This document shows positions 12,446 through 48,033 of a DNA stretch of 64,000 nt, one piece after another (positions within the stretch are counted from its first letter, which is position 1; each line of letters starts with the position of its first letter). Origin of the DNA: Escherichia coli (GTDB taxonomy: Bacteria > Pseudomonadota > Gammaproteobacteria > Enterobacterales > Enterobacteriaceae); the NCBI RefSeq assembly GCF_965641715.1, contig NZ_OZ282453.1. One strand, given 5' to 3'. The translations under genes and the position numbers were made by a program. A model generated the notes under the pieces. It was not told the origin of the DNA. It ran no database searches and saw only the letters and a program-made list of their open reading frames with translations.

Positions 12446-12744
12446 CAGTACACCCCTACATCACGATAAACCGACCAGAGCGCAGAAATAGCCATAGGCA
12501 GTTCAGACTGCTCCACAGGTGAAACCGCTTCCCTGTTCTCGTACAGGAAAGCGATGTACATCAGGCAACCAACACGTATTGCCGGGGTAAATTCCAGCCC
12601 GTCTTCAAAACGTTTCCCGATATGCTTCTGGCAGGCTTCCAGCGCCGCATCGGTATACATTTTCAGAAGTTCGCCCTCACCTGAGAAGTCATCAAGGCGA
12701 AGATGTGCCCTGACTTCATCAGGTGTAATTTTTTCTTCACTCAT
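12445..12744 (-). CDS. gp6-like head-tail connector (satellite)
   Basis: MSEEKITPDEVRAHLRLDD.. N-terminus; internal ATG, ORF track start 12825. Confidence 0.55.
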   Translation of the reverse strand: MSEEKITPDEVRAHLRLDDFSGEGELLKMYTDAALEACQKHIGKRFEDGLEFTPAIRVGCLMYIAFLYENREAVSPVEQSELPMAISALWSVYRDVGVY

Positions 12745-13951: not shown

Positions 13952-13952
13952 A

Positions 13953-14513: not shown

Positions 14514-14567
14514 CGGTGTACTCCATAAAGCTGAAAAAGGAGGCCGCAGCCTCCTCCTTACTCATGA

Positions 14568-15737: not shown

Positions 15738-15974
15738 GAAGGTTTTCTCGTATTGGTTAAGATTCAGGACGTGAAACCAACACGGAGGGAGCGCCGCCCG
15801 ACACTCTCGGCATCTCGCAGATCAACCCGGCATCGCGCAGGGGGTCAGGCGGCATTGTGGCGGCTCACGTCTGAGTGCCACACGCCAACATATACATAAA
15901 AATCAGTATGTAAACATCAGCCAGAATCACCGAACAACCTGGAACAACCACGAACAAATAATTTACAAAACCTG

Positions 15975-16000
15975 AAAAAAAGACCTGGAGAAAATCCAGG
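15975..16000 (-). terminator. Intrinsic terminator upstream of satellite capsid operon
   Basis: Hairpin cctgga/tccagg followed by T-run on minus strand, directly after ORF 16012..16260. Confidence 0.5.
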
Positions 16001-16011
16001 CCTTTATCGCT

Positions 16012-16260
16012 TTATTGTTTCACTGGATCCCGCATTCTGCGTCTTATTTTCCACAGATATTCGATCATCGCTTCCACCTGCTCACGATTGGTTGCGAAAA
16101 TTTCCCCGGTCAGTGAGCTGCGCAGAAAATCATGATGATCCACAACAAACAACGCATCGGAAGAAAGCAGACGGCGATATTTTTTTGCTGTCGTGGTTTC
16201 CAGATCATCAAAACCATGAAACTTTTTATGTTGCTGGACTTCTTCAAATGTCACTGGCAT
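16012..16260 (-). CDS. Hypothetical protein
   Basis: 82 aa ORF, 4-nt overlap with upstream ProQ-like gene. Confidence 0.4.
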   Translation of the reverse strand: MPVTFEEVQQHKKFHGFDDLETTTAKKYRRLLSSDALFVVDHHDFLRSSLTGEIFATNREQVEAMIEYLWKIRRRMRDPVKQ

Positions 16261-16793
16261 GTATCCCCCTTTGCCGCCCGGCGCTGGCGCTTGTGCTTCT
16301 CATTCAGCGCCATCAGCCGCGTTTCTGCCTCCTGCTGTTCCTGTGGTGTCACTTCCCCACATGGCTGGCCTTTCAGGTCGTATCGTACCCCACCAGCAAC
16401 CAGGGCGCGGTAATAGCGCGGAGACTGCGCATAAGATGCCAGCGTCGCACGTAATGCCCCCGGCCCGAATGCCAGCCCCCTGACGGCGAGATCCTGCATC
16501 AGGTCGTCGAATATCCCCACCTTAAGCGGCTTCGGTGCTTCCCTGTTGAATAAGTCAGGCCACATCTCAGTGAGGCGGTTAACGCGCCTGCGGTTTTTGC
16601 GCTGGCGTTTGGTCATATGCCGCCACGGTGTCACCCCTGTGGGCTGCCCTTTGCGGCTCTGCTGTGCGTTCTGATTGCCGGGTATCACTTTATGCGCCGA
16701 TGTGGTTTTATCCCGCTCTTGCGCCGCCTGCGTCGTTTTCTGCGGCGTGCCGTAAATGCCTTTCGGTTTTCGGTTAATGGTCAGCTTTGTCAT
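16251..16793 (-). CDS. ProQ/FinO-domain RNA-binding protein with basic N-terminal extension
   Basis: ..PLKVGIFDDL..RATLASYAQSPRYYRAL..RYDLKGQPCGEV.. parallels ProQ N-terminal domain. Confidence 0.6.
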   Translation of the reverse strand: MTKLTINRKPKGIYGTPQKTTQAAQERDKTTSAHKVIPGNQNAQQSRKGQPTGVTPWRHMTKRQRKNRRRVNRLTEMWPDLFNREAPKPLKVGIFDDLMQDLAVRGLAFGPGALRATLASYAQSPRYYRALVAGGVRYDLKGQPCGEVTPQEQQEAETRLMALNEKHKRQRRAAKGDTCQ

Positions 16794-16957
16794 GCCTTCC
16801 CCTGTAATTACTCTGTTCGCTGTTGTGAATTAAAACGGTATGTTATCCCCGTACAGGTCATCGTGCTGGCCTGTCTGTTGTTTTGCCCTGTTCAGTGCGT
16901 CAGTGGCCTGCCCCTGTTGGCCTTTTTTGCCGCCCGGTCGCGCCGTTCTCGCACTGA

Positions 16958-17254
16958 TTACGCTGTCTGCGATGACCTGCCAGCCCTGCCGCGTTTCGCC
17001 GTTCTGCCCTGTCCACTGCTTACCTGCATGTTACCCGCCACGCTCACCAGTTCGCCTTTGCGGTGTTTTGCCAGTGCGTCGGCCTGTCTGCCAAACGCCA
17101 GGACGGATAACCACATCGTCGCCGTTCCGTCATCTGCCTGGCTGCATGGCAGGGGAACCGCCATACTCGCCATCGCCATTTGTGTTCCCTTGCTGGTGGT
17201 CTTTAACTGCGGGTCAGCCACCAGCCGCCCGTAAGCCGCTATCTGTGCTGTCAT
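16958..17254 (-). CDS. SSB-like OB-fold protein (tentative)
   Basis: 98 aa, ..GRLVADPQLKTT..TATMWLSVLAFGRQA..KGELVSVAG.. resembles short phage SSBs. Confidence 0.35.
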   Translation of the reverse strand: MTAQIAAYGRLVADPQLKTTSKGTQMAMASMAVPLPCSQADDGTATMWLSVLAFGRQADALAKHRKGELVSVAGNMQVSSGQGRTAKRGRAGRSSQTA

Positions 17255-17318
17255 GCTGTCTGCTCTCCGGTTTTAACGTTGATGGTTACGCTTGTTTACA
17301 CCCTTACGGTGAAATTCT

Positions 17319-17441
17319 GCGGGTTATAATCGCACTTTTGCGGGTTATAACTGCCGTTTTGCGGGTTACGTGCGGGTTATTGATTTCCTTTTTATTCATA
17401 CAGTTAATGCACTTATATACATGATAACCCGCATAACCCGC
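17319..17441. repeat. Iteron cluster, candidate satellite origin (4 direct GCGGGTTAT + 2 inverted, AT-rich centre)
   Basis: Immediately downstream of primase/helicase gene. Confidence 0.6.
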
Positions 17442-17464
17442 AACTTTTCACCTCACACAGGGGG

Positions 17465-19588
17465 TTAATCTTCTGCCTCAGGCTGGAACATCAGCACGTA
17501 AAAAACATGCTGCTTCCCCCCAATTTTGCCGAGCGCCTTTTTCTTGTAACGGCGATCGTTACCCGCTTCCAGCATTCCGGCAGCACTCAACGCGCGGGCA
17601 AAGTGAGACGGATTAAATCCCTGTGCTATCTCACCCTCAAATACATGCGGGAACGTGTAAAAACGGAACTCGTCATCTTCGTTTCTGATACTCCCCTTTC
17701 TGTATCCGGCAAGTTCTTTAATCGATAAATCACGCTCGTCGGTATTGGGCCACGGAAGGTATCTGCTGAATCCGAACGACGCTAAAAAAGCTTCTGCCTG
17801 TTCAACCATCTGTTTAAATTCCCTGTTACCCGTGCCGAACTCCTTCACCCAGGCATTAAAATTATGCTGTATGGCATCGCGGCATTCCTGCTCATCCCAG
17901 CCAGTAACATGACCTGAAAGCACAAGCGCGGCCTCCAGTATGGCAAATCGCTCCCCCACACGGTGAACCTGTTCGCCGTAGCTCTCCGGTATCAGGTTGC
18001 GCCACCGCTCACGGCATGTCCTTACCGTGTCCTTTGCCTCCTGCTGGTGTTCTGCCAGCCATTTAACCCACTCACGACCCGCCGCCCCGTGATTTTCTGT
18101 CCAGGCATCCTTTAACGCGTCTGCGTGCGCCTTTCCGGTGCTGTATTCGTGAAATTGCGTGGCTTTTTCCATCGGAACGTTAAGCAGGCGGACAAGCTGC
18201 CCCGCTTTGACTTTTATCCCCTCCGTTTTGAGGAATGTCTCAACGTCCATTTCTCCGGTGCTGATTGCCACCGTGCGCCAGTGTTTGATCTCCCTGTTGC
18301 CGCCGTCCTTCGCCCCCTGTAATTTCCCCGAACCGTTAAACAGCGTATAGGCTGACGTGGACACCTCCCGCGCGTTTCCGGCCTGGCCTATTTCATCCAG
18401 GGGTAAAAGCCCGTCATTGTGTGCCTCTGCTTCGTTGGCGATACCTAACGCTGTGCCGTACCAGGTCAGCCGCTGCGCGTCCGGCTCTCCCCATAAACTT
18501 GATGCGATGTTCTGTGTGGTGGTTTTCCCTGCCGATGACTGTTCGAAAAGATGTACCCCGAAGCCGTCAGCGCCCACCAGCCCGATTAATGGTGCGGATA
18601 ACGATACCGCCACACCCAGCATCATGGACGGATTACCACCAGCCAGCCGCGCAACGGTATCGCGCCAGCCCTCCGCCGTTCCTGCCACGGAATAGCCATT
18701 AACAGCAGCCGTTTTTCCGGTAAACAGGACTGGCTTTTCGCAATCACCAATGACCGAACCGTCCGGCATGATGTACGCGCCAAAATGCCAGCCCGTTGTT
18801 GTGCTTAACTGCCATTCCTCATGGCTTCCGCTTAACTGCATCCAGTCAGCCAGGATAGCCCTGTATTTACCGTTGGTTGTTACGTTCAGTCCGTGGTCTT
18901 TCAGCAACCGCCAGCCGTCACGGTCGCCAATGCCACCGCACGGAACCGCCATTGTGATGACTTCATGGTTTGCTAATTTTTTCCAGCGCATCACGCGGTA
19001 ATGCTCTTTACCGATTGTCCCCGTTCCCAGTAGTTCAAGCGGGGAACATAACCACGTCTCAGGCCGGATAATTTCGCCTGACTGCTTATCCACTTTTGGC
19101 GTTACCCAGAAAACACCATCGGCGCGACTTTCAACGCGGGGCTTTAATTCATCATCGCCCTGGATTTCTGTGATTTTTTTCTTTAAGGGCAACACCAGAC
19201 TTTCCCCGCGCTCGTATTCGTCTTTGAGGCGAGGCAACTGGTCGGATAAATCCGCCGGGCTGATGTCAGTTATCCCCGCGTATTCGTATACGGTCTTCAC
19301 GCCAGCCACAGCCAGCAACGTGACGATCTGTGTAAGGCTACGTTCAGTGATGTGCCCTGCGCGGTAAACACGCACACACTGACGGCTATCATCAATAATT
19401 TGATAACCGGTAATATCTTTCAGGTGTTCATCTGACAGAACGACAGGCGGCACATTGTCGGCGGCAATATGCTTACCTGCCCATTCCTGCCACTCTTTCG
19501 CATGGCTCCACGCATCACTACCCGCAAAGATGATAACCTCCGTCATTTTGTCGGCTGGCTGGTGCTTTAAGTTTGGTGCGCGCTTCAT
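17465..19588 (-). CDS. Primase/helicase-type replication protein
   Basis: 707 aa with Walker A (SSAGKTT), P4-alpha/PICI pri-rep-like position next to iterons. Confidence 0.65.
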   Translation of the reverse strand: MKRAPNLKHQPADKMTEVIIFAGSDAWSHAKEWQEWAGKHIAADNVPPVVLSDEHLKDITGYQIIDDSRQCVRVYRAGHITERSLTQIVTLLAVAGVKTVYEYAGITDISPADLSDQLPRLKDEYERGESLVLPLKKKITEIQGDDELKPRVESRADGVFWVTPKVDKQSGEIIRPETWLCSPLELLGTGTIGKEHYRVMRWKKLANHEVITMAVPCGGIGDRDGWRLLKDHGLNVTTNGKYRAILADWMQLSGSHEEWQLSTTTGWHFGAYIMPDGSVIGDCEKPVLFTGKTAAVNGYSVAGTAEGWRDTVARLAGGNPSMMLGVAVSLSAPLIGLVGADGFGVHLFEQSSAGKTTTQNIASSLWGEPDAQRLTWYGTALGIANEAEAHNDGLLPLDEIGQAGNAREVSTSAYTLFNGSGKLQGAKDGGNREIKHWRTVAISTGEMDVETFLKTEGIKVKAGQLVRLLNVPMEKATQFHEYSTGKAHADALKDAWTENHGAAGREWVKWLAEHQQEAKDTVRTCRERWRNLIPESYGEQVHRVGERFAILEAALVLSGHVTGWDEQECRDAIQHNFNAWVKEFGTGNREFKQMVEQAEAFLASFGFSRYLPWPNTDERDLSIKELAGYRKGSIRNEDDEFRFYTFPHVFEGEIAQGFNPSHFARALSAAGMLEAGNDRRYKKKALGKIGGKQHVFYVLMFQPEAED

Positions 19589-19899
19589 TTTGCCTTTCCC
19601 CGTTCACGAATAATTTCACGTACTGCCTTAATGCGTTCCATTCCTGTAACGCGCATGATTCTGTCGATGTCGCTTAATTCTGCTGGTGGTGCTTTACTTA
19701 CCAAGGTGAACTCCCTGTCAAAGCGCATATGTGACGACACGCAGGGATGCGCATAACCTTCGCGGATATAGGTCACACGAAAATCATCGACGGTTTTGAT
19801 CGTTATCGTGCTGCCGTATTTATCCTGGAAAATATCGCCGGGGCGGATTTCAGGCCGAGCGGGGCCGCTGGCAGTAAAGCCAGAATTTTTCTTTTTCAT
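19585..19899 (-). CDS. Hypothetical protein
   Basis: 104 aa, 4-nt overlap with primase gene. Confidence 0.4.
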   Translation of the reverse strand: MKKKNSGFTASGPARPEIRPGDIFQDKYGSTITIKTVDDFRVTYIREGYAHPCVSSHMRFDREFTLVSKAPPAELSDIDRIMRVTGMERIKAVREIIRERGKAK

Positions 19900-19904
19900 G
19901 TTTT

Positions 19905-20153
19905 TTACTCCAGAGGCAGCTTTTTAGCGGCGAGCTCAATATCAGATGTCAGAGAAACCTGTGTATTTGCCAGGTCTAACAACAAAGAAATAAGAATTTC
20001 TTCTCTGCTATCGGATTTATCGGTGCTAAGGCTGTTCATCCACATATTGACGACTTCCCTGATTTTTTTCGCAGAGTGCAGGGCTTCAAATGCCAGGTCT
20101 TCAATATCATGTTTATTTCGCATAATCGCCCCCGCCATTTTCACAATCAGCAA
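19905..20153 (-). CDS. Hypothetical protein
   Basis: 82 aa ORF in early leftward operon. Confidence 0.3.
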   Translation of the reverse strand: MLIVKMAGAIMRNKHDIEDLAFEALHSAKKIREVVNMWMNSLSTDKSDSREEILISLLLDLANTQVSLTSDIELAAKKLPLE

Positions 20154-20358
20154 TCAGGATGGCTTTTGCCTCATTCAGCGCCATATCAGCACTAAATTGC
20201 ATAACAGCCAGTGAGTGAGGAACGAAAGCCCCGGCATATTCTGTTTCGCTGGTGGCGTGCTTATGCGCCTTGTCTGCGATAACAGAAATATCAATCAGCG
20301 CGTGCATCAGCGTTTTGATGGCTTCGGCGGCTGCGTCCGGACGGGTGTTATTGCACAT
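20113..20358 (-). CDS. Hypothetical protein
   Basis: 81 aa ORF, first gene of leftward operon. Confidence 0.3.
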   Translation of the reverse strand: MCNNTRPDAAAEAIKTLMHALIDISVIADKAHKHATSETEYAGAFVPHSLAVMQFSADMALNEAKAILIADCENGGGDYAK

Positions 20359-20651
20359 GGCGCACCTCCTGACGAATACGGGCAGCGAATACCATCACGC
20401 AGCCAGCCGGGGATTGCTGGCGTGCTTCCTGTTCGCTAGTGGCCTCAATGGTAATCACACGCGGTTGTGCCGTGCTCAGGGCGATAAAACGCCAGATGTA
20501 TTTATTCAGGTTGTGCGAGTCCCGCCCTTGCGGGTGTGTGGTATGATTTAACATAGCTACCTCGATAATCTTGCTATCGTTGGTGGTTAGAAGCCCGGTT
20601 AGTGTTAGCGCACTGCCGGGTTTCGTCGTTTGTATTTCAATAAAACCATTG

Positions 20652-20729
20652 GTGTGTTTCATGTTATTTTGGAGTGAAACACACGTCAAGCCTTTTTTGT
20701 ATTTCTTTTTTGTGTATACTGAAACACAC
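20652..20729. promoter_or_regulatory. Divergent promoter/operator region with three TGAAACACAC half-sites
   Basis: Perfect 10-bp inverted repeat GTGTGTTTCA..TGAAACACAC plus third copy overlapping a TATACT -10. Confidence 0.45.
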
Positions 20730-20750
20730 CAAATTTGAGGAGTTTCAGTT

Positions 20751-21056
20751 ATGGCGACTACCAACAAAAACGCTAAATCACAATTGACCACCGTCAGAGT
20801 CCCCCACGATGTTATGGAGGGCATGGAATCCGTAAAACTGGACGGCGAAAGCAACGCCGGATTCATAGTAACCGCCATGCGCGGTGAGATCGCCCGCCGC
20901 CAGGCAGAAGGAAGCGGAGAAAATCCCCTGGTTTCTTCGCTCGATGCACTGGCGCAGGTGGAAAAAATTGGAGTCAAGGCTGCCGAGGAGATCGGGCAAC
21001 TCGTCACCGTCGCGCGTGAAGAACTCCAGCGACGCAAGGTCAAAGAGCAGGAATAG
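20751..21056 (+). CDS. Ribbon-helix-helix-like regulator (tentative)
   Basis: GAGGAG RBS; N-terminal TTVRVPHDVMEGMESV..AGFIVTAMRGEI pattern. Confidence 0.45.
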   Translation: MATTNKNAKSQLTTVRVPHDVMEGMESVKLDGESNAGFIVTAMRGEIARRQAEGSGENPLVSSLDALAQVEKIGVKAAEEIGQLVTVAREELQRRKVKEQE

Positions 21057-21113
21057 CCACTATCAGCGCCATAGTTTGAGGAACGCAGGCGCATTGCTTT
21101 ACAGGACAGCACC

Positions 21114-21293
21114 ATGAGCGACACAGAATCAACCAAAACACCATCACCAACTCGTAAGAGACGACGCAAAAATATAGCGCATGAACATGAATCAGAAAGA
21201 TTCGCACCTTGTTCGTTTGCTCTTGAGAAATTCCTTAAAGAGCACAGGAAAAAGCTCTCGTTGCAAACCTTGGAACGAACCAAATCTGACTGA
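21114..21293 (+). CDS. Small basic protein (59 aa)
   Basis: ORF below track cutoff, followed by two intrinsic terminators. Confidence 0.25.
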   Translation: MSDTESTKTPSPTRKRRRKNIAHEHESERFAPCSFALEKFLKEHRKKLSLQTLERTKSD

Positions 21294-21359
21294 TCACATT
21301 GCCCACCAGCCGCAAATGTGGCATTGTTGGTGATGCTTTTGTTTTCCCTTGTTCCCACT

Positions 21360-21388
21360 GGCGACCCTTTTGCGGTCGCCTTTGTTTT
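21360..21388 (+). terminator. Intrinsic terminator
   Basis: ggcgaccc tttt gcggtcgcc followed by T-rich run. Confidence 0.45.
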
Positions 21389-21483
21389 GCCTGTTATCCG
21401 GCAATAGTGGCGCTTCGTCACCTGTCTGATATAATTCCACAGCTTATATTCATTTTTTGCGCAGTAGGTTAATTGTTCGCAAG

Positions 21484-21515
21484 GGCGCTCCGGCAACGGG
21501 GCGCTTTTTGTTTTT
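21484..21515 (+). terminator. Intrinsic terminator with GCAA tetraloop
   Basis: gcgctccg GCAA cggggcgc then tttttgttttt. Confidence 0.4.
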
Positions 21516-21673
21516 ACCCACCAGCACAATAAAAATCTTCATTTTCCATTTTTGTAAAATTTCATGCTTTCCGGACGACTGGTCATATGTCATTTTTTAG
21601 CAGAAGATTTTGCCTTGCTGGTGGGTAGCTTCCCGGTCAACACGATGTACCGTATAATCAACACCGCGTGTGG

Positions 21674-22252
21674 TTACTGAATACGCTCACCAAAGTAAAA
21701 CTCAGGCTGGTATTCACGTATCAGCCTTTTTTCTTCTTCCTCCAGCTCACGCTTTTTGCGCTTACATGCCTGTAGCTCCCTCCCCTTCTCACTGGCACTT
21801 ATCTGGTATTGCTCTTTGCGGCGGGAAAAATCCTGTAATGCGCCCCACGGGATACCATAAGCCCCCGTTTTTCTGATACCCGGTATCACATTTCTGAATA
21901 CCCAGTTACTGAAACGATGAGCAAATGTGCCAGGCGTCGTTGCTTTGCGGCTGCGGGCTATTAGTTTGTAGAAACCTGACTCGGAGATAATGCTCATATT
22001 CTGATTTCCTCCGGGGGTGTAAGTTAAATTTACTCCCTTTTCGTCATCATCAAGCATCTGCAACGCCGTACGCGAATTGGTCAATTCCAGCGCAGCACAA
22101 ACATCCTTTGCAACAAACCACGGATCGCCGTTTAGATACACCACACGAACATCCACGCCATCAAAGCGCAGAACGACCAGATCACGAATATCACAGAATT
22201 TTTTCACATGACGTGCGTCACCCTTGCCCGTCACGGCAATATTTTTATTCAT
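21674..22252 (-). CDS. Bro-N domain protein (antirepressor-like)
   Basis: ..FDGVDVRVVYLNGDPWFVAKDVCAALE.. matches Bro-N consensus. Confidence 0.7.
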   Translation of the reverse strand: MNKNIAVTGKGDARHVKKFCDIRDLVVLRFDGVDVRVVYLNGDPWFVAKDVCAALELTNSRTALQMLDDDEKGVNLTYTPGGNQNMSIISESGFYKLIARSRKATTPGTFAHRFSNWVFRNVIPGIRKTGAYGIPWGALQDFSRRKEQYQISASEKGRELQACKRKKRELEEEEKRLIREYQPEFYFGERIQ

Positions 22253-22309
22253 TGCTTTTTACCTCACATACAAAAAACCCCGCATTGCGTGGTGCGGGGT
22301 TGTCGGTAA

Positions 22310-22588
22310 TTACTTATTGGCGTTTTTGTATGGGCTGTTTACTTCCTTTACTCCTGGCGGATGCATAACCCACCAGAGCACATCAGAGAGCAACCAGGAA
22401 ACAGACACTTTCCCTAAATGAGCACGAGCAGGAAATGCTCCCTCCTGTTCAAGTACCCAACGTCTGCTTCTTGAAAGCCCGGTACGATTGGCACACTCAT
22501 GTTCGCGTATACGGCGATCATACGGTTCGCCATGATCTTTCAGAATCTGAATGCGTTCTTCGGGTGTAGGATAAATAAATTTTTGCAT
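22310..22588 (-). CDS. AlpA-family regulator / excisionase-like
   Basis: HECANRTGLSRSRRWVLEQEGAFP..VSWLLSDVLWWV; internal ATG, ORF track start 22618 is TTG. Confidence 0.6.
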   Translation of the reverse strand: MQKFIYPTPEERIQILKDHGEPYDRRIREHECANRTGLSRSRRWVLEQEGAFPARAHLGKVSVSWLLSDVLWWVMHPPGVKEVNSPYKNANK

Positions 22589-22651
22589 AAAAATATCACC
22601 TATAAAAAAACCCGCCAAAAGACGGGTTGATTATATCTCATTTAATTTAGC

Positions 22652-22873
22652 TCAGGGTTTCCATTCACCTTTTACCCATTCCAGCACCTCAGATAAGCGC
22701 CAGACTTTTGTTTGTGGGCCAATACATATTTTTCGTGGAAATTTTCCTTCCTTTTCAAGTAACGATCTGTGTCTCCTGCCAAGAGCGGTTAACCATGCAC
22801 ATTCATCCTCCTTAATCATCCTGTCGATTGTTTCATCATTTTCAAGTTCTTCACGCGTAACTATTTGAATCAT
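22652..22873 (-). CDS. AlpA-family regulator / excisionase-like
   Basis: DECAWLTALGRRHRSLLEKEGKFP..VWRLSEVLEWV; start uncertain (22885, 22873 or 22819). Confidence 0.6.
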   Translation of the reverse strand: MIQIVTREELENDETIDRMIKEDECAWLTALGRRHRSLLEKEGKFPRKICIGPQTKVWRLSEVLEWVKGEWKP

Positions 22874-24074
22874 TACTGTCACCACTAATTTGCTTATTCA
22901 GATAGTCGTACCACCAGTTCATAGCTTCTTTTTTTCTGTCCATATACTGGCTTCTGTTATAAACCCCGGCAACACCGCCTAATGTGTGCCCAAGCAACTG
23001 TTCAACCACATTATGTTCAAAACCATGATCACTTAGTTTTGTGGCAAACACTCTTCGCATATCATGCGCCGTCCATTTCTCCGAGTGTTTCATCCTTTTC
23101 CATGTCTTACCGATAGTTACGCTTGCCGTACACTGACGCATATCAAACCCAATCACATTTTCTTTGTTACCTGTTATTTTTTTTAACGTAACTAACCAGT
23201 TAAACATGCCATCAGGAATCGGTCTGATTATTTCCCTGCCATTTTTGCTATGATCAGCGGGAACGCGCCATAATTTCTTATCAAAATCCCACTCTACCCA
23301 GGACGACAGTAATACTTCTGACAGTCGACAACCAAAAACTACCAGGAAACGTAAAATAATTCGGTTTTCATATGATAATTCGTGATTGTCATAATCAGTA
23401 TTAATACTTCGCCATAAATCTCTGATTTCATCATCTGTTAAAACCCTGCTTCTTCGCGCAGACTTTTTTCCCACATCACAGACCTCAAGATCATCAATTT
23501 CATGACTAATCGCGTATTTTCTTACCCTACAAAATTTAAGCGCCTGTTTTGATATACGCAACAAAGCTCCGGCCTGTACAGGTGCTACTTTTTTTATTTT
23601 GTCAAAACACTTAATCCACATAGATATAGAGCAATCACTAAGTGGTACATGACCAATCACCGGATAAATATGTTTACCAAAGCACTGCCTGATATGTTCT
23701 GCTCCCCTACGCTTATCCATTGCATAATTATCAAGCCAGTATTCAAGTGCCTCACGAACGGTAACAGGTTGCAAGGTGGCTTCCCGTTCAATTTTTATCT
23801 GAATCCGTGGATCTCTGCCCTCCGCAAGCCAGGTTCGACACTGATCGCGCATCTCTCTCGCTGATTTGAGACTCAGATCAGGATATTTTCCAAGTGTCAG
23901 CCAGATGGGCGCGGTTCCCCTTCCCGCCAGTCTGTAAAAGAAAACAAAACTAACACATCCGTATTTACTGACCCGTACCGAAAGCCCGTTACCATCAGCG
24001 ATGGTTTCCTGCCTCTCACTCCTGCGCCCAAGCAGGGAACGAAGTTTTTTATCGCTCAGTTTGTTTAGCGCCAT
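22851..24074 (-). CDS. Tyrosine integrase, P4 type (satellite)
   Basis: MALNKLSDKKLRSL.. N-terminus, C-terminal HxxR..Y catalytic region; ORF track start 24110. Confidence 0.85.
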   Translation of the reverse strand: MALNKLSDKKLRSLLGRRSERQETIADGNGLSVRVSKYGCVSFVFFYRLAGRGTAPIWLTLGKYPDLSLKSAREMRDQCRTWLAEGRDPRIQIKIEREATLQPVTVREALEYWLDNYAMDKRRGAEHIRQCFGKHIYPVIGHVPLSDCSISMWIKCFDKIKKVAPVQAGALLRISKQALKFCRVRKYAISHEIDDLEVCDVGKKSARRSRVLTDDEIRDLWRSINTDYDNHELSYENRIILRFLVVFGCRLSEVLLSSWVEWDFDKKLWRVPADHSKNGREIIRPIPDGMFNWLVTLKKITGNKENVIGFDMRQCTASVTIGKTWKRMKHSEKWTAHDMRRVFATKLSDHGFEHNVVEQLLGHTLGGVAGVYNRSQYMDRKKEAMNWWYDYLNKQISGDSNDSNSYA

Positions 24075-24094
24075 GTGATTTATAACCCGTTTTT

Positions 24095-24115
24095 GCAATA
24101 CACAGTGCAATACAC
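24095..24115. repeat. Tandem GCAATACAC motifs, candidate integrase arm-type sites (right arm)
   Basis: gcaatacacagtgcaatacac just upstream of int; copy at 9271..9291. Confidence 0.4.
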
Positions 24116-24245
24116 AAATGATGAAAACAGCCAGAACCTTCCAGAAAAAACAAAAACGACGAACAAGAAAAAATCTTTTTCTTTCATTTGGTTACTAAAA
24201 AAATCAGGACAGGTCGCACTGTTGTTACGGCGTGATGTTACTTTC

Positions 24246-24259
24246 TTTGTGAAAAAATT
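24246..24259. repeat. Satellite junction core, right copy (tttgtgaaaaaatt)
   Basis: First 7 bp identical to 9189..9195; encodes ..FTK of the terL N-terminal fragment. Confidence 0.55.
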
Positions 24260-39342: not shown

Positions 39343-41814
39343 ATGAGTAAAGTCTTTATTTGCGCCGCTATTCCTGACGAACTGGCAACAAGGGAAGAAG
39401 GCGCTGTGGCTGTAGCCACAGCCATTGAAGCTGGCGACGAACGCCGTGCTCGAGCAAAATTTCACTGGCAGTTCCTGGAACATTATCCGGCTGCTCAGGA
39501 CTGCGCTTATAAATTTATTGTCTGCGAGGATAAACCTGGCATACCCCGCCATGCCCTCGATTCATGGGATGCTGAATATATGCAGGAAAACCGCTGGGAT
39601 GAGGAGTCTGCTTCTTTTGTCCCGGTTGAGACTGAATCCGATCCGATGAACGTCACTTTTGACAAGCTGGCCCCTGAAGTACAGAACGCTGTCATGGTTA
39701 AGTTCGACACATGTGAAAACATCACCGTTGATATGGTTATTAGCGCACAGGAATTGTTGCAGGAAGACATGGCAACATTCGACGGACATATCGTTGAAGC
39801 GTTGATGAAAATGCCAGAAGTTAACGCCATGTATCCGGAGCTTAAGTTGCACGCCATTGGGTGGGTTAAGCATAAATGTATTCCTGGTGCTAAATGGCCC
39901 GAAATTCAGGCAGAGATGCGCATCTGGAAAAAACGTCGCGAAGGTGAACGCAAGGAAACCGGAAAATACACGTCTGTTGTTGATCTCGCCCGCGCCAGAG
40001 CCAATCAACAGAACACTGAAAATTCAACAGGAAAAATCAGCCCGGTCATTGCTGCCACTCATCGCGAATACAAGCAGACATGGAAAACACTGGATGACGA
40101 ACTGGCCTACGCTCTCTGGCCTGGTGATGTGGATGCCGGAAACATTGACGGCAGCATCCATCGCTGGGCAAAAAAAGAAGTTATCGACAACGACCGCGAA
40201 GACTGGAAGCGTATCTCGGCATCAATGCGCAAACAGCCTGATGCCCTTCGCTACGACCGCCAGACTATTTTTGGCCTTGTCCGTGAACGTCCGATCGACA
40301 TTCACAAAGACCCTGTGGCACTGAACAAATACATTACTGAATACCTGACTACAAAGGGCGTGTTTGAAGATGAAGGAAGAAATCAGAGCGCAACTGATAC
40401 TCTCTCGTCGCCAGTACCAGAAACTGATGCAGTGGAAACGGCAATTCCGGACAACGAAAAAACCGAATGCAAAGTGGAAGTCGAACCATCTGTAGAGCGT
40501 GAAGGGCCGTTCTACTTCCTCTTCACCGACAAGGATAGCGAAAAATACGGTCGCGCAAACAAACTTTCTGGTCTGGATAAGGCACTGGCTGCAGGGGCTA
40601 CTGAAATCACGAAAGAAGAATATTTCGCCCGCAAAAACGGTACATACTCAGGTTCACAACAAAATACTGGTGCATCTGACACGACCGCACAACCAGGGCC
40701 GGTAAAAGTTACCGCTGACGAAGTAAACAAAATTATGCAGGCAGCCAATATCAGCCAGCCTGACGCCGATGAACTGCTTGCAGTATCACGTGGTGAATTT
40801 GTTGCAGGGATTAGCGATCCGAATGATCCGAAATGGGTGAAGGGGATTGAAACCCGCGATTCTGTGAACCAGAACCAGCAAGAAACGGAACAGAACGACC
40901 AGAAAGCGGAACAAAACAGCCCAAATACGCCACAAAACGAGCCAGAAACGAAACTACCTGAACCAGTAGTGCAACAGGAAGTGGAAAAAGTCTGCACCGC
41001 CTGCGGTCAGACCGGCGGCGGCAACTGCCCTGATTGTGGTGCGGTGATGGGCGACGCAACATACCAAGAAACATTCGATGAAGAGTATCAGGTTGAAGTT
41101 CAGGAAGATGATCCGGAGGAAATGGAAGGCGCTGAACATCCACACAAGGAGAACACTGGCGGCAATCAGCATCACAATAGCGATAATGAGACTGGCGAGA
41201 CGGCAGATCACTCAATTAAGGTGAACGGTCATCACGAAATCACATCCACCAGCAGGACGTGTGACCATCTAATGATCGACCTTGAAACCATGGGAAAAAA
41301 TCCTGATGCCCCGATCATCTCAATAGGTGCAATATTTTTCGATCCGCAAACCGGAGATATGGGACCGGAATTTAGTAAGACTATCGATCTGGAAACTGCT
41401 GGCGGAGTCATTGATCGGGACACCATTAAATGGTGGCTTAAGCAATCACGCGAAGCGCAATCTGCCATTATGACCGATGAAATCCCGTTAGATGATGCAC
41501 TGTTACAATTGCGGGAATTTATCGACGAAAACTCCGGTGAATTTTTTGTTCAGGTTTGGGGAAATGGAGCCAACTTCGACAACACGATTTTGCGCCGTTC
41601 ATACGAACGGCAGGGGATCCCCTGCCCGTGGCGTTACTACAACGATCGCGATGTACGCACAATCGTTGAGCTGGGGAAAGCCATAGACTTCGATGCCAGA
41701 ACGGCTATTCCATTCGAAGGTGAGCGCCATAATGCACTTGATGACGCTCGTTACCAGGCAAAATACGTTTCAGCTATCTGGCAAAAACTGATCCCGAGTC
41801 AGGCTGATTTTTAA
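39343..41814 (+). CDS. RecE-like exonuclease with C-terminal DnaQ-type 3'-5' exonuclease domain
   Basis: 823 aa; ..SRGEFVAGISDPNDPKWVKGIETRD.. RecE-like segment, CxxC..CxxC ribbon, C-terminal DLETMG..H..D. Confidence 0.5.
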   Translation: MSKVFICAAIPDELATREEGAVAVATAIEAGDERRARAKFHWQFLEHYPAAQDCAYKFIVCEDKPGIPRHALDSWDAEYMQENRWDEESASFVPVETESDPMNVTFDKLAPEVQNAVMVKFDTCENITVDMVISAQELLQEDMATFDGHIVEALMKMPEVNAMYPELKLHAIGWVKHKCIPGAKWPEIQAEMRIWKKRREGERKETGKYTSVVDLARARANQQNTENSTGKISPVIAATHREYKQTWKTLDDELAYALWPGDVDAGNIDGSIHRWAKKEVIDNDREDWKRISASMRKQPDALRYDRQTIFGLVRERPIDIHKDPVALNKYITEYLTTKGVFEDEGRNQSATDTLSSPVPETDAVETAIPDNEKTECKVEVEPSVEREGPFYFLFTDKDSEKYGRANKLSGLDKALAAGATEITKEEYFARKNGTYSGSQQNTGASDTTAQPGPVKVTADEVNKIMQAANISQPDADELLAVSRGEFVAGISDPNDPKWVKGIETRDSVNQNQQETEQNDQKAEQNSPNTPQNEPETKLPEPVVQQEVEKVCTACGQTGGGNCPDCGAVMGDATYQETFDEEYQVEVQEDDPEEMEGAEHPHKENTGGNQHHNSDNETGETADHSIKVNGHHEITSTSRTCDHLMIDLETMGKNPDAPIISIGAIFFDPQTGDMGPEFSKTIDLETAGGVIDRDTIKWWLKQSREAQSAIMTDEIPLDDALLQLREFIDENSGEFFVQVWGNGANFDNTILRRSYERQGIPCPWRYYNDRDVRTIVELGKAIDFDARTAIPFEGERHNALDDARYQAKYVSAIWQKLIPSQADF

Positions 41815-41875
41815 TGTTCAACTGTCGCCAGTTGTCGTTGGTATTCTGCAACTGGCGCGTTCCGGAGTGATAGCC

Positions 41876-42145
41876 ATGAGCGAACAGTACCTGATAACGC
41901 TCGATGAGTGGAAGCCAAAACGGTTCAGTCTCCCAATAACAAACACTACCCTGGTGAAATACGGAAAACTAGGATACATCGTTCCAAGACCACAAAAAAT
42001 TCGTGGGCGTTGGCTGATAGATCGCCGGGCAGTATTTGTTGGACCTGGTGAAACGGGAATTGCGCCGGAAATTCATACTGGCGATGATGATGCACTGAAG
42101 GAGATTTTAACTCATGTCACCGAGGCCACGAAAAAACAGCACTGA
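41876..42145 (+). CDS. Excisionase-like protein
   Basis: Call by position only: small ORF immediately upstream of and overlapping int. Confidence 0.4.
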   Translation: MSEQYLITLDEWKPKRFSLPITNTTLVKYGKLGYIVPRPQKIRGRWLIDRRAVFVGPGETGIAPEIHTGDDDALKEILTHVTEATKKQH

Positions 42146-43232
42146 CGTAACCGGTCTTTACGAAAAGTTTGATCGCAGAACTGGCAGGGTTTACTACCAG
42201 TATAAAAACCCTGTGACTGGAAAATTTCACGGTCTCGGAACAGACAAAGGCAAAGCAGAAAAAATCGCTTCCACAGCCAATCAGCGAATAGCTGCAGCAG
42301 AAGCTGAATATTTCATGCGCAAAATTGATGAAAGTCCGTCAGCAACAAAACGTCGGGGTATCAGATTAAAGGCATGGGTTGATCGATATCTGAAAATACA
42401 GGACGCGCGACTGAAAAATGGAGATATTGCAGCTACAACTCACAAAGAAAAAGCCCGAATGGCTGCATACCTGGTTTCCCGTCTGGGAAACCACCCATTG
42501 AAAGAACTGGAAGTAAGAGACTTTGCATTAATACTGGATGAGTGGCTGGATAAAGACATGGTCAGCACAGCGAGAGTAAATCGTGGATTATGGGTTGATA
42601 TTTATAAAGAAGCACAGCATGCAGGGGAAGTTCCTCCTGGATGGAATCCTCCGGAGGCTACCCGTAAACCGATCCCTAAAGTAACCAGAGCCAGACTCAC
42701 CCTAGAGGACTGGCAAAAAATTTACAATTCAACACCAGAAAAACACTTTATCCGTAACGCAATGCTTCTTGCGATTGTTACTGGTCAGCGCCGTGATGAC
42801 ATTTGCCACATGCGTTTTTCAGATGTGTGGAACGAACACTTGCATATCACCCAGGGAAAAACCGGAATGCGTCTGGCGTTACCGCTTACGCTACGCTGTG
42901 ATGCCATTGGAATATCGCTAAAAGAAGTGATTGATGGATGCAAGGACAGAATATTGAGTCCATACCTGATTCATAGTCGGCACCAGAAACAACCAAAACC
43001 AATGAGTAAAGATAACCTGAGCGACTACTTTGCTAAAGCGCGGGATCTGGCAGGAATAACTCCACCAGCAGGAAAAACACCACCAACATTTCATGAACAA
43101 CGCTCCCTGTCAGAACGACTGTACCGCGCACAGGGTATCGATACAAAAACATTACTGGGACATAAAGTCCAAGCAACCACCGATCGTTATAACGATACTC
43201 GTGGTCAGGAATGGGTTAAATTGGTTGTTTGA
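42114..43232 (+). CDS. Tyrosine integrase (helper prophage)
   Basis: 372 aa lambda-family integrase at prophage end. Confidence 0.85.
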   Translation: MSPRPRKNSTDVTGLYEKFDRRTGRVYYQYKNPVTGKFHGLGTDKGKAEKIASTANQRIAAAEAEYFMRKIDESPSATKRRGIRLKAWVDRYLKIQDARLKNGDIAATTHKEKARMAAYLVSRLGNHPLKELEVRDFALILDEWLDKDMVSTARVNRGLWVDIYKEAQHAGEVPPGWNPPEATRKPIPKVTRARLTLEDWQKIYNSTPEKHFIRNAMLLAIVTGQRRDDICHMRFSDVWNEHLHITQGKTGMRLALPLTLRCDAIGISLKEVIDGCKDRILSPYLIHSRHQKQPKPMSKDNLSDYFAKARDLAGITPPAGKTPPTFHEQRSLSERLYRAQGIDTKTLLGHKVQATTDRYNDTRGQEWVKLVV

Positions 43233-43335
43233 CGAAATAAATACAGCTGTAACGTTGCCAGTAATTAACAACCGATAAAAATGTTGATATTGCTTTACTG
43301 ATGTAAAAACCCCGGCTGATGCCGGGGTTTGGAGA

Positions 43336-43803
43336 CTAATCTTGATCAGGTTCCTGCTTAGAATAATGTTTTCCAACAATAAATGCCGTAACCAATGCAA
43401 CAAGATCTATTGAAACGAGAGCTCCAGCAAGAACAGTCTCCCCCATGACACCAAAGACAGCAGCAACGAAGATAATCAATATCGCCAGCCAAAAAGCCTT
43501 TGTTTGACCATCTCTGGCAATATCAATGGTATCAGCCACCGTTTTGTGGCGATGAGCCTGCTCCTTTTCAGTCAACTCAACAAGCCTATTTGCAAGCCCT
43601 GGCATCAGTTGATCATACTTTTTAAGCATTGATGGCGGAGGAACCGGCCCCTGAAAATGCTGGCAAACAATAGCTCGCACCTGCGGGCTCTCCAAAACCC
43701 TGTTTAAGACTTCTGGATTTTCGATTACTCGAGAAACCAGTTCATTGTCCTTTTGTTCTTCACAAGTGAGTTTGGTGTTCTCACTTTCTTTTTGATCTGG
43801 CAT
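43336..43803 (-). CDS. Membrane protein (soluble N-domain + two C-terminal TM helices), possibly YmfA-like
   Basis: 155 aa cargo gene between int and chromosomal potC. Confidence 0.4.
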   Translation of the reverse strand: MPDQKESENTKLTCEEQKDNELVSRVIENPEVLNRVLESPQVRAIVCQHFQGPVPPPSMLKKYDQLMPGLANRLVELTEKEQAHRHKTVADTIDIARDGQTKAFWLAILIIFVAAVFGVMGETVLAGALVSIDLVALVTAFIVGKHYSKQEPDQD

Positions 43804-43984
43804 TGTTCAGCTTTTCAACGTTAACGGATACCATTGCTCTTTGGAAATCGCCTCTGATAGCCGCAGCATCCTGACGCAAAGCGGCAACTGGATTCGCTGG
43901 CATACCATTTGCTGAAACGACCGCTGGGCTCAGGGCTATAACCGAGCCAATGGCTTGCAACAAAGCCACTCTTTTACGCTTCAT
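43781..43984 (-). CDS. Small secreted protein
   Basis: Signal peptide MKRKRVALLQAIGSVIALSPAVVSA; ORF track start 44023. Confidence 0.3.
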   Translation of the reverse strand: MKRKRVALLQAIGSVIALSPAVVSANGMPANPVAALRQDAAAIRGDFQRAMVSVNVEKLNNARSKRK

Positions 43985-44291
43985 AGTCACTCCTGAGTTC
44001 AATGAGATTTCAAACGGATTCAAAGTGAATCATGTTAGGTAATTCTAATACCACATTATGTGTTTTTTCAACACGAAGAAATCGCATCAAAAATCTCATT
44101 CGGAAAGTGATATGGGTAAACAAACTGGAATACTTTTCTGTCCTAGTGTGCTCGCCATGTATAAAAATGCTGTAAAATGCGTGGTCCTGTTTTGGGGAAA
44201 AGTTTTGGAGAGATTTTGGAGAAAGGAAAAAATTGAATAAATTCAAAATCCTGAAAGTGCTCCACCTTATGAATAAGAAGGTAGAACTCGA

Positions 44292-45086
44292 ATGATCGGT
44301 CGACTGCTTCGCGGCGGTTTTATGACCGCTATCTACGCGTACCTGTATATCCCAATCATTATTTTGATTGTGAACTCTTTCAACAGCTCGCGCTTTGGCA
44401 TCAACTGGCAGGGTTTTACCACTAAATGGTATAGCCTGCTGATGAACAACGACAGTCTGTTGCAGGCAGCTCAGCATTCATTGACGATGGCGGTGTTTTC
44501 AGCGACGTTTGCTACGCTTATCGGTTCACTGACTGCAGTTGCGCTGTACCGTTATCGCTTTCGCGGTAAGCCGTTCGTTAGCGGAATGCTGTTTGTGGTG
44601 ATGATGTCGCCAGATATTGTGATGGCGATTTCGCTGCTGGTGCTGTTTATGCTGCTGGGTATTCAGCTTGGCTTCTGGTCGCTGCTGTTCTCGCATATCA
44701 CCTTCTGCCTGCCATTTGTGGTGGTGACGGTGTATTCGCGCCTGAAAGGTTTTGACGTGCGAATGCTGGAAGCGGCGAAAGATCTCGGTGCCAGCGAATT
44801 TACCATTCTGCGAAAAATCATTCTGCCACTGGCAATGCCAGCGGTGGCGGCGGGCTGGGTGTTAAGCTTTACCCTGTCGATGGACGATGTGGTGGTTTCT
44901 TCGTTCGTCACTGGGCCGAGTTATGAAATTCTGCCGTTAAAAATTTATTCGATGGTCAAAGTCGGCGTATCGCCGGAAGTTAACGCGCTGGCAACCATAT
45001 TACTGGTGCTGTCGCTGGTGATGGTTATTGCCAGCCAGCTTATTGCTCGTGATAAAACGAAAGGTAACACAGGGGACGTTAAATGA
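44292..45086 (+). CDS. potC: Spermidine/putrescine ABC transporter permease PotC
   Basis: 264 aa, sequence and length match PotC; overlaps potD start. Confidence 0.95.
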   Translation: MIGRLLRGGFMTAIYAYLYIPIIILIVNSFNSSRFGINWQGFTTKWYSLLMNNDSLLQAAQHSLTMAVFSATFATLIGSLTAVALYRYRFRGKPFVSGMLFVVMMSPDIVMAISLLVLFMLLGIQLGFWSLLFSHITFCLPFVVVTVYSRLKGFDVRMLEAAKDLGASEFTILRKIILPLAMPAVAAGWVLSFTLSMDDVVVSSFVTGPSYEILPLKIYSMVKVGVSPEVNALATILLVLSLVMVIASQLIARDKTKGNTGDVK

Positions 45087-46129
45087 AAAAATGGTCACGC
45101 CACCTGCTCGCGGCGGGTGCTCTGGCACTGGGCATGAGCGCCGCTCACGCCGATGACAACAATACGCTGTATTTCTACAACTGGACCGAGTACGTGCCGC
45201 CAGGACTGCTTGAACAGTTCACCAAAGAAACCGGTATTAAGGTTATCTATTCGACTTACGAGTCGAACGAAACCATGTACGCCAAGCTGAAAACGTACAA
45301 AGACGGTGCCTACGACCTGGTGGTTCCTTCAACCTATTACGTCGATAAAATGCGTAAAGAAGGGATGATCCAGAAGATCGACAAATCGAAGTTAAGCAAT
45401 TTCAGCAACCTCGATCCAGACATGCTCAACAAGCCGTTTGACCCAAATAACGACTACTCCATTCCGTATATCTGGGGGGCGACGGCGATTGGCGTTAACG
45501 GTGATGCGGTAGATCCGAAATCCGTTACCAGCTGGGCCGATCTGTGGAAGCCTGAGTACAAAGGCAGCCTGCTGCTGACCGACGATGCCCGTGAAGTGTT
45601 CCAGATGGCGCTGCGTAAGCTGGGCTACTCCGGTAACACCACCGATCCGAAAGAGATTGAAGCTGCATATAACGAGCTGAAAAAACTGATGCCAAACGTG
45701 GCAGCCTTTAACTCCGATAACCCGGCTAACCCGTACATGGAAGGCGAAGTTAACCTCGGCATGATCTGGAACGGTTCTGCTTTCGTTGCACGCCAGGCGG
45801 GTACGCCTATTGACGTGGTGTGGCCGAAAGAAGGCGGTATATTCTGGATGGACAGCCTGGCGATCCCGGCAAATGCCAAAAACAAAGAAGGCGCGCTGAA
45901 ATTGATCAACTTCCTGCTGCGCCCGGATGTGGCAAAACAGGTTGCTGAAACTATCGGTTATCCAACGCCAAACCTTGCGGCGCGTAAGCTGTTAAGTCCA
46001 GAAGTGGCGAACGATAAGACGCTCTACCCGGATGCTGAAACCATTAAAAATGGCGAATGGCAGAATGACGTTGGCGCAGCCAGCAGCATTTATGAAGAGT
46101 ATTATCAGAAGCTGAAAGCAGGACGTTAA
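45083..46129 (+). CDS. potD: Spermidine/putrescine-binding periplasmic protein PotD
   Basis: 348 aa with signal peptide, matches PotD. Confidence 0.95.
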   Translation: MKKWSRHLLAAGALALGMSAAHADDNNTLYFYNWTEYVPPGLLEQFTKETGIKVIYSTYESNETMYAKLKTYKDGAYDLVVPSTYYVDKMRKEGMIQKIDKSKLSNFSNLDPDMLNKPFDPNNDYSIPYIWGATAIGVNGDAVDPKSVTSWADLWKPEYKGSLLLTDDAREVFQMALRKLGYSGNTTDPKEIEAAYNELKKLMPNVAAFNSDNPANPYMEGEVNLGMIWNGSAFVARQAGTPIDVVWPKEGGIFWMDSLAIPANAKNKEGALKLINFLLRPDVAKQVAETIGYPTPNLAARKLLSPEVANDKTLYPDAETIKNGEWQNDVGAASSIYEEYYQKLKAGR

Positions 46130-46135
46130 TTCAGC

Positions 46136-46168
46136 AAACGGGCGGTGGTATTACCGCCCGTTTTTTAT
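46136..46168 (+). terminator. Intrinsic terminator after potD
   Basis: aacgggcggtggtattaccgcccgtt hairpin followed by tttttt. Confidence 0.6.
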
Positions 46169-46240
46169 TTAGCAAGGATGTGGTTAATGAGTCAGGACAG
46201 TAGAGTTTTATCCCGCTCTTTCGTCGGTATTGTGGTCCGC

Positions 46241-46275
46241 TTGTAGACCTGATAAGCGTAGCGCATCAGGCAATG
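46241..46275. repeat. REP element
   Basis: ttgtagacctgataagcgtagcgcatcaggc palindromic REP consensus overlapping cobB 3' end. Confidence 0.6.
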
Positions 46276-46284
46276 CTTCCTGCT

Positions 46285-47106
46285 TTATAATCCCTTCAGC
46301 AACTTTTCAACAAATTCTGGCACCACCTGGCTTGCCGGGCCGTAATATTTCTCGGCAAATTCATTACCAACCTGACTCGGTTCAAGATTCAGTTCCACGG
46401 TGTGCGCGCCATGCAGTTTCGCTTCGTGAACAAACCCAGCCGCCGGATAAACATGCCCCGAAGTACCAATGGCAATGAAAATATCGGCCATCGACAACGC
46501 CATATAAATTTCATCCATGCCGAGTGGCATTTCGCCAAACCACACTACATGCGGGCGCAAGGGTGCCGGGAACTGGCAGCAATGGCATTTATCTTCTGGG
46601 GTAACGTCTCCGGTCCAGTCGAGAACCTGACCACTTTGTGAACAACGAACTTTCAGCAGTTCCCCATGCATATGAATCACATTGGTATTACCTGCGCGTT
46701 CATGCAGGTTGTCTATATTCTGCGTCACCAGCAAAAAGCGATCGCCGAGAGCATCTTGCAGTTTAGCCAGCGCAAGATGCGCGGCGTTAGGCTGAATTTC
46801 TGGCTGCTGCAGCTGTCGACGACGGGCGTTATAAAACGCTTGCACCAGTTCAGGATCGCGATCGAAACCTTCCGGCGTTGCCACATCTTCAACCCGATGT
46901 TCTTCCCACAGGCCATCTGCGGCGCGAAAGGTACGAATACCTGATTCCGCAGAAATTCCTGCCCCTGTCAGTACGAGTACTCTTGGTTTTTCCATTGCTT
47001 CCGGCACCACTTTATCTCTGAAAAAAATACGCTGACGCAAACGCTCGCGCAGGCGGCGTTTATTTTTACGAAAACGACTTAACCGATGACCCCGACGCGA
47101 CAGCAT
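46285..47106 (-). CDS. cobB: NAD-dependent protein deacylase CobB (long isoform)
   Basis: [19 protein letters not shown].. N-terminus, sirtuin core; 273 aa. Confidence 0.9.
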
Positions 47107-47121
47107 AGCAACCTCTGTTGT

Positions 47122-48033
47122 TTAATCGGTTAGATGTAGGAAGGCCGCACCACGCATTCCTCCCGCATCACCGTGGCGCGCGCGTTCAATGCGCGGAACA
47201 CGAGCTACAGGTAAGAGATGACGAGGCAGCCTGTCCGCCAGTTGCGTTGTGATTGCCGGGAAATTCGATAAGCCACCACCAATGACGACCAGGTCAGGGT
47301 CAACAATGGTCAGGATATTTCCCAGACAAACCGCTAATAAATCCAGATAACGCTCAACGTGCGCCCTTGCCTGCTCATCGCCTTGATCATAAAGCGCAAT
47401 AATTTCGGGAGCCTGCAACGGTTGATGATAATAGTGTTGATACAGCCACGCAAAACCGCGACCAGACAGATAATTTTCAATGCAGCCATGCTGACCACAG
47501 CCGCAGCGGCGTAACGGGAAATCCAACACCATCATGGTTAACGCATCAACCGGCAGACGCATATGGCCAAACTCGCCGGTAATGTAGCTTTTACCGGTAA
47601 TCGGTTTGCCGTTGAAAATCAGCCCGCCGCCAACGCCGGTGCCGAGAATCAACCCCATCACCAACGGATATTGCGTAAATTCGTCATCCCAGGCTTCTGA
47701 AAGGGCAAAACAGTTGGCATCGTTATCAAGGCGTACATCGCGATCAAGACGTGCGCTCAGGTCGGCACGCAGCGGTTTGCCGCTGGCAGCGGGGACATTA
47801 GCGGCATACAGCGTACCATCTTCTGTTTCCGGCATTCCCGGAATACCGATGCCGACAGAACCTTTACAGCCAAAACGTTGATCAGCTTCAGCTACCAGCT
47901 CACACACTGCATCTAAAAATGCGTCATAGCTGTCACGCGGTGTCGGCAGCCGCTTTTCCCACTGCAACTGCCGACCGCTATCAAACACGCCAAGCGCAAT
48001 TTTTGTTCCACCAATATCAAACCCGTAATACAT
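47122..48033 (-). CDS. nagK: N-acetyl-D-glucosamine kinase NagK
   Basis: [17 protein letters not shown].. start; 303 aa; ORF track start 48093. Confidence 0.9.

Follow-up and report, generated by a model that had tools for sequence, protein, structure and literature searches.

Very probable attR end of a Rac/lambda-like prophage at the potB/potC site of Escherichia coli, with a cargo cassette between int and the P arm

Phage integration at the potB/potC boundary of Escherichia coli is already known, and the arrangement described here belongs to that published insertion site. The locus has been named potC by some authors (PMC8065619; PMC11052207; PMC10925052) and potB by others (PMC9997748; PMC7067040), and phi-CFT073-potB is named in a further study (PMC4632033). 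In the annotation of the O157:H7 strain Sakai, prophage Sp6 begins 10 bp from potC; the equivalent prophage of EDL933 is CP-933N. Sp6 excises spontaneously, circularises and can be transferred to K-12, where it takes up the locus that it occupies in Sakai (Asadulghani et al., PMC2669165), which validates the Int/att system experimentally in a close relative of the prophage considered here. The site already serves as a marker locus in STEC genomics. Beyond correct annotation, the significance of the present locus is small: it is a textbook case of phage integration into the 3' end of a gene with repair of that gene. Two modest points are raised by it, namely how potCD are transcribed after loss of the potA promoter, a matter that touches O157:H7 and, in all, about 30% of sequenced E. 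coli, and what role is played by a widespread two-gene DUF2335 moron.

The DNA analysed, referred to below as the window, is a stretch of 64,000 nucleotides from contig NZ_OZ282453.1 (E. coli assembly GCF_965641715.1). Positions 43233-44291 are very probably the attR end of a Rac/lambda-like prophage at the E. coli potB/potC site, with a cassette between int and the P arm. This end is followed by potC (44292-45086, plus strand, 264 aa) and potD (45083-46129, plus strand), both intact; their protein products match those of E. coli W at 100% identity. A preliminary description of the same DNA, made from the letters and their open reading frames, had stated that potC starts at 44292 with no potB upstream; the ORF map and the sequence agree on this. 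The sequence of the potB end and core occurs once in the window, so both potB and the left prophage end are absent from it. Neither a second core copy nor a potB remnant is found in the 64 kb, and a single 12-mer with one mismatch to the core, at 17387, is within chance expectation.

The junction is defined by alignment with the empty site and with relatives. The alignments took in the empty site of E. coli W (attB), the attR sequences of HCP5S3_I2, EC416, O157 Rafaela_II, Sakai and EDL933, and the attL sequences of HCP5S3_I2, EC416 and EDL933. In the three-way alignment of attL, attB and attR, the core copy next to potC is TGAATAAGAAGG(TA), at 44270-44283 on the plus strand. It lies within 44024-44291, where the preliminary description had expected it; the accompanying claim that the core is indefinable without the left end does not hold, as attB of E. 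coli W and attL of relatives suffice. The sequence TGAATAA(G/A)AAGG is common to attL, attR and attB, with TG added in EC416-type phages, and the three kinds of core differ solely by polymorphisms at positions 8 and 14. The core spans potB codons N-K-K-V, 9-22 bp 5' of the potC ATG, which puts the junction within the 3' end of potB and not in an intergenic gap.

Right of the core, the window sequence equals the empty site: the chromosomal B' bases at 44284-44291 (plus strand), which form the last native potB codons (E-L-E), are identical to those of E. coli W. The flanks of the window core are identical to those of the Sakai and EDL933 attR. Core position 14 (44283) is A in the window (AAGGTAGAA) and G (AAGGTGGAA) in all ten of the other attB, attL and attR copies compared. 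An alignment across the potB-potC junction had been proposed as a check on the core and on any change 5' of potC; run against the empty site of E. coli W, it finds the core and a potC that retains its start codon and native upstream bases save for this one core base. Position 44283, 9 nt ahead of the potC ATG, belongs to a stretch that resembles a Shine-Dalgarno sequence. At core position 8, EDL933 has G at attL and A at attR, which suggests that strand exchange takes place to the left of that position.

The phage base adjoining the core, an A at 44269, makes an in-frame mini-ORF of eight codons at 44269-44295 (ATG AAT AAG AAG GTA GAA CTC GAA TGA, encoding MNKKVELE), the stop of which bears exactly the same overlap with the potC ATG as the native potB stop. 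Its ATG is found in every attR copy examined and has no Shine-Dalgarno sequence before it; the mini-ORF may be a coincidence.

Occupied sites are common. Megablast of window 43100-44500 against 5426 complete E. coli genomes finds the whole interval, cargo genes included, in 209 genomes, and empty sites align solely from window position 44270 onward. Window 41800-47200 is covered to at least 80%, a threshold that demands xis and int adjoining potC, in 1615 of the 5426 genomes (30%), and the cargo is present in about 13% of occupied sites (209 of about 1615). Among the full-coverage matches listed for 41800-47200, identity to the window is 96.1-98.7%. The preliminary description had allowed that potB might stand intact immediately upstream of potC in the true genome, with the window misassembled. 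Recurrence of the junction in those 1615 complete genomes, and of the cargo arrangement in 209, leaves an assembly artefact with a negligible probability. The same holds for the reading that the two cargo ORFs form a separate, tandem element at this site: the core is not repeated near int, the P arm beyond the cargo aligns without a break with the P arm of prophages lacking it, and no recombinase gene is part of the cassette.

The other end of such prophages can be read in relatives. The two closest complete genomes have potB on the far side of the prophage, at a distance of 45-56 kb, which bears out the earlier statement that the prophage ends at potC and parts potCD from potAB. A left junction running from potB through the core into the P' arm is found in HCP5S3_I2, EC416 and EDL933. 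The P' arm replaces the native potB end, KKVELE and stop, with KKVSELDD and stop in EC416 and HCP5S3_I2 and with KKATEIDN and stop in EDL933; the resulting PotB has 287 aa and is intact in the RefSeq annotation. For the window, the left junction and potB tail are predicted from relatives with an identity of 98-99%. Judged by EC416, its attL is expected about 10.7 kb to the left of position 1, and it would read ...CTGAATAAGAAGGTG then AGCGAATTAGATGATTAA, or would give potB another short tail and stop. In the O157 prophages of EDL933 and Sakai at the same att site, the T3SS effector genes nleL, espN, espK and espX7 adjoin attL, so different lineages hold different accessory cargo at the two prophage ends.

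Integrase and excisionase genes stand beside the junction. The xis gene (41867-42145, plus strand) has a match to Pfam Exc (E 7.8e-5, at the gathering score) and is annotated as an excisionase gene in relatives. The int gene (42114-43232, plus strand) encodes a lambda-family tyrosine integrase of 372 aa in which the arm-binding N-terminal domain (PF09003, Arm-DNA-bind_1, E 4e-21) and the catalytic domain (PF00589, Phage_integrase, E 4e-19) both score above cut-offs. A PDB search aligns the whole of Int with lambda Int (structure 1z1b, E 9e-55); the alignment takes in the TGQR and FHE.RS motifs and the aligned tyrosine (YRD in lambda Int, YND here). It is 97% identical over 372 aa to the Sakai Sp6 Int, ECs_1501. 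Catalysis and arm and core binding by the window Int are candidate activities, supported indirectly by analogy with Sp6 Int.

The attP-derived P arm (44159-44269, plus strand, 111 bp, 34% G+C) is kept in the attR of O157:H7, Sakai and EDL933 and is conserved in prophages without cargo. It holds three tandem copies of a repeat with the consensus TTTTGG(A/G)GA: TTTTGGGGA at 44190, TTTTGGAGA at 44203 and TTTTGGAGA at 44214. The exact 9-mer is expected 0.6 times per window, and two copies stand 11 bp apart in the P arm; the motif recurs in the P' arm at attL of EC416 and EDL933. Their repetition makes them candidate arm-type Int sites. A free-phage attP was not found, the two matches in a phage collection being in-silico prophage cut-outs that retain potC and potD.

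In the mechanism that best explains the locus, a lambda-type Int with Xis would recombine the phage attP, through a core of 12-14 bp, TGAATAA(G/A)AAGG(TG), with the last potB codons, and tandem TTTTGGAGA-type repeats would flank the phage core on both arms. The P' arm would supply potB with a short acidic tail and a stop, as in the relatives with a readable left junction. Both the potB and the potC reading frames would survive, and potAB and potCD would become separate transcription units about 45-56 kb apart. The segment between int and the P arm is occupied by a cassette, convergent with int, of a predicted sigma-70 promoter, a 67-aa gene, an overlapping DUF2335 gene and a predicted terminator.

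This cassette corresponds to an extra segment of about 921 bp (43238-44158) in pairwise alignment with the O157:H7 prophage at the same site in Rafaela_II, where 166 bp separate the int stop from the potC ATG. The segment contains a terminator, two genes and a promoter. Both minus-strand ORFs noted in the preliminary description, one for a small signal-peptide protein and one for a 155-aa membrane protein, prove to be real genes. The first (43781-43984, minus strand) encodes a 67-aa protein with a signal-peptide-like N-terminus that is conserved directly upstream of DUF2335 in Salmonella prophages, and it overlaps the DUF2335 start by 23 nt. Read from a TTG, this ORF would span 43781-44023; the ATG at 43984, which gives 67 aa, is preferred because a conserved AGGAG Shine-Dalgarno sequence precedes it and because it is the RefSeq start in relatives. 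The stretch from Shine-Dalgarno to ATG, ACTCAGGAGTGACTATG, is nearly invariant, with one substitution in one of four sequences. The second gene (43336-43803, minus strand) encodes a 155-aa DUF2335 membrane protein (PF10097, 46.8 bits against a cut-off of 25; phrog_3996, E 1e-41, labelled 'moron... membrane protein'). Its N-terminal domain is conserved and its C-terminus is a hydrophobic hairpin of two helices; 29 homologues occur in Escherichia, Salmonella and Pantoea. The AlphaFold2 model of this protein is of low confidence (mean pLDDT 60, pTM 0.29).

A GC-rich hairpin (43307-43330) separates the convergent int and cargo genes. With the U5 tail that comes after it on the minus strand, it resembles an intrinsic terminator of that strand; its plus-strand version is followed by UUUGG only. 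Folding energies are -19.9 kcal/mol (minus) and -22.1 kcal/mol (plus), with z about -5.6 and none of 200 shuffles as stable. An Rfam search of 42900-44600 returns only sub-threshold matches to this hairpin, namely to the terminator part of RsmY. At the other end of the cassette, the predicted sigma-70 cargo promoter (44042-44071, minus strand) consists of TTGAAA, an 18-nt spacer and TAGAAT, with 10 of 12 consensus matches and a score of 13.85 bits; the top plus-strand score per 300 nt in the window is 13.9. Its -35, -10 and spacer are conserved in one Salmonella copy, and the -10 alone in another. The spacer also holds a perfect 5-1-5 palindrome, CACATTATGTG, at 44048-44058. The palindrome is partly conserved in a Salmonella copy (CACATGGTGTG) and could be an operator for some regulator.

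DNA homology to one Salmonella cassette runs from 44073 to 43333 and begins at the -35 box, which indicates that the promoter travels with the genes. The small protein shares 82% and 61% identity with its counterparts in Salmonella prophages, the DUF2335 protein 76% and 56%. These prophages carry the two-gene cassette behind their tail-fibre genes or within the nin/Q region, and Pantoea has DUF2335 alone, between cI and N. With 43.3% G+C, the cassette is only slightly apart from int (45.3%) and the prophage early region (48.3%). By its sequence features, the cassette has moron anatomy, with a predicted promoter and terminator of its own, variable presence and several slots.

The cargo matches no characterised moron, exclusion or defence family in PHROGs, PADLOC, NCBIfam or a PDB sequence search. 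PADLOC gives the DUF2335 protein a weak, partial, sub-threshold match to PD-T4-6 (E 0.0025, 15 bits) and the 67-aa protein none, and the NCBIfam and PDB sequence searches return nothing usable. A 'DUF2335 phospholipase' of a T6SS preprint was set aside as probably a slip for DUF2235. The cassette is probably expressed from the prophage and might alter the cell envelope or exclude other phages; an envelope-level role in lysogenic conversion or exclusion is a working guess, drawn from gene positions and membrane or secreted products.

Two other features of the window lie away from the junction. A 15-kb element (9203-24245) interrupts the large-terminase gene of the prophage, a gene that HCP5S3_I2 carries uninterrupted in its own prophage. 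An imperfect direct repeat of 14 bp, TTTGTGAGAATATT / TTTGTGAAAAAATT (9189-9202 and 24246-24259), borders the element on either side. The same element is present in EC416, where its annotation includes an integrase of its own, regulators, a DUF927 protein, SSB, ProQ/FinO, capsid, protease, portal, connector, HNH, terS, terL and IS1414; tail genes are absent. We take it to resemble a capsid-forming satellite of the PICI type, and it should leave the host prophage packaging-defective. Beyond potD, ymfA and ycfZ are missing between potD and cobB (46130-46284, a gap of 155 bp), as in O157:H7 Sakai and EDL933; both genes are present there in E. coli W, EC416 and HCP5S3_I2.

The source of potCD transcription is best approached through EDL933, whose attR is the same but for the missing cargo. 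RNA-seq of this strain in LB gives RPKM values of 46 for potD, 18 for potC, 11 for potB and 5 for potA over a background of about 0.14 (Table S4, PMC4048457). PotD is detected in the proteomes of three O157 strains, which may or may not carry the prophage (PMC9135228). The preliminary description had held that potCD must be expressed from phage-derived sequence in 44024-44291. Independent transcription of potCD is supported in EDL933 by the RNA-seq data; a promoter in that interval finds less favour. The best plus-strand sigma-70 score there is an unremarkable 8.6 bits, normal for any 300-nt stretch of the window (the best plus-strand score per 300 nt has a median of 6.9 and a 90th percentile of 9.2), and a consensus scan of the interval found none.

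A promoter within the AT-rich P arm that drives potCD is possible, if somewhat unlikely. The transcript levels in EDL933, which has the same P arm, argue for it, as do the 34% G+C and weak -10-like hexamers of 44024-44291 and a candidate of TTGGAG, a 16-nt spacer and TAAATT at 44216-44243 that is conserved in O157. Conservation of the interval is already accounted for by Int, Xis and arm binding, however, and the Cappable-seq data for EDL933 speak against such a promoter as well. Sheet 1 of Table S5 can serve as negative evidence in the portion around potD, which is ordered and complete: across eight conditions, that portion holds start sites for neighbouring genes and none for potC or int (PMC10469882). 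The same table gives potA a start site in seven of the eight conditions; for potD, two stationary-phase conditions show one at 1628426, which falls inside potC, 17 nt ahead of the potD ATG (PMC10469882). That the cassette is a self-promoted lysogenic-conversion or exclusion module moving among int-att, tail-fibre, nin/Q and cI-N slots is rather unlikely, as is the separate reading that the conserved AT-rich P arm doubles as a promoter that keeps potCD running after the split.

That internal start site is consistent with a second reading, in which potC is reached mainly by upstream plus-strand read-through from int/xis or early-left transcription and potD also has its own promoter inside potC. 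The int, xis and exonuclease genes are all oriented towards potC, and just three U residues follow the plus-strand hairpin after int. The missing int start site in the covered part of Table S5 counts against this reading, as do the 0 RPKM reported for int and xis in EDL933, a value that may reflect discarded multi-mapping reads (PMC4048457). In the window, the inserted cassette interposes a stable hairpin and a convergent transcription unit, so read-through would be hindered. Read-through as the main supply of potC is unlikely.

The insertion might instead act as an effective polar knock-out, with potCD not usefully expressed and the PotABCD transporter lost in lysogens. Neither a recognisable promoter in 44024-44291 nor, in the covered part of Table S5, a potC start site has been found, and E. 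coli has further routes of polyamine uptake and synthesis. Set against this are transcript levels of potC and potD in EDL933 that equal or exceed those of potA and potB, and the presence of PotD in O157 proteomes, albeit in strains that may or may not be occupied. The PotC and PotD proteins remain 100% identical to those of the unoccupied strain despite 23 nucleotide differences in potC relative to E. coli W, all of them synonymous, and about 30% of complete genomes retain the arrangement. A knock-out is very unlikely. For the window, low-level independent transcription of potCD from an unmapped promoter is the probable state; candidates for its source are weak promoter activity of the P arm, transcription running through from int and, in the case of potD, a promoter within potC.

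Among described systems, the prophage is closest to Sp6, CP-933N and phi-CFT073-potB (the 'PP_potB' or 'potC' site), which share its chromosomal site and core. The P arm is of the Sp6 type: over the 129 bp preceding potC, the cargo-less prophage cut-outs show about 92% identity, and their junction sequence equals that of O157 except at core position 8. Also common to the Sp6 type are an Int of 97% identity, the order xis-int-att, a Rac-like ExoVIII-type exonuclease gene upstream and a replacement potB tail. Sp6 and CP-933N differ in lacking the 921-bp cargo, with the int stop 166 bp from the potC ATG, in a P' arm that gives potB the tail ATEIDN instead of SELDD, and in their late regions and cargo (T3SS effectors); the window in turn has A at core position 14 (44283).

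The likeness to lambda Int, Xis and attP lies in full-length Int homology including the arm-binding domain, in the place of int beside attP, in the short core and in the repeat-bearing arms. Whereas lambda targets the intergenic attB between gal and bio, the phage of the window targets the end of a coding sequence, which is then repaired, and its candidate arm motif TTTTGGAGA is presumably unrelated in sequence to the lambda arm sites. For the cassette, the nearest parallel is the moron of lambdoid phages, a concept said to come from Juhala, Hendrix and colleagues. It is likewise a small autonomous unit with promoter and terminator, absent from some otherwise homologous prophages and found in typical accessory slots: between int and att, after tail-fibre genes, in nin/Q and between cI and N.
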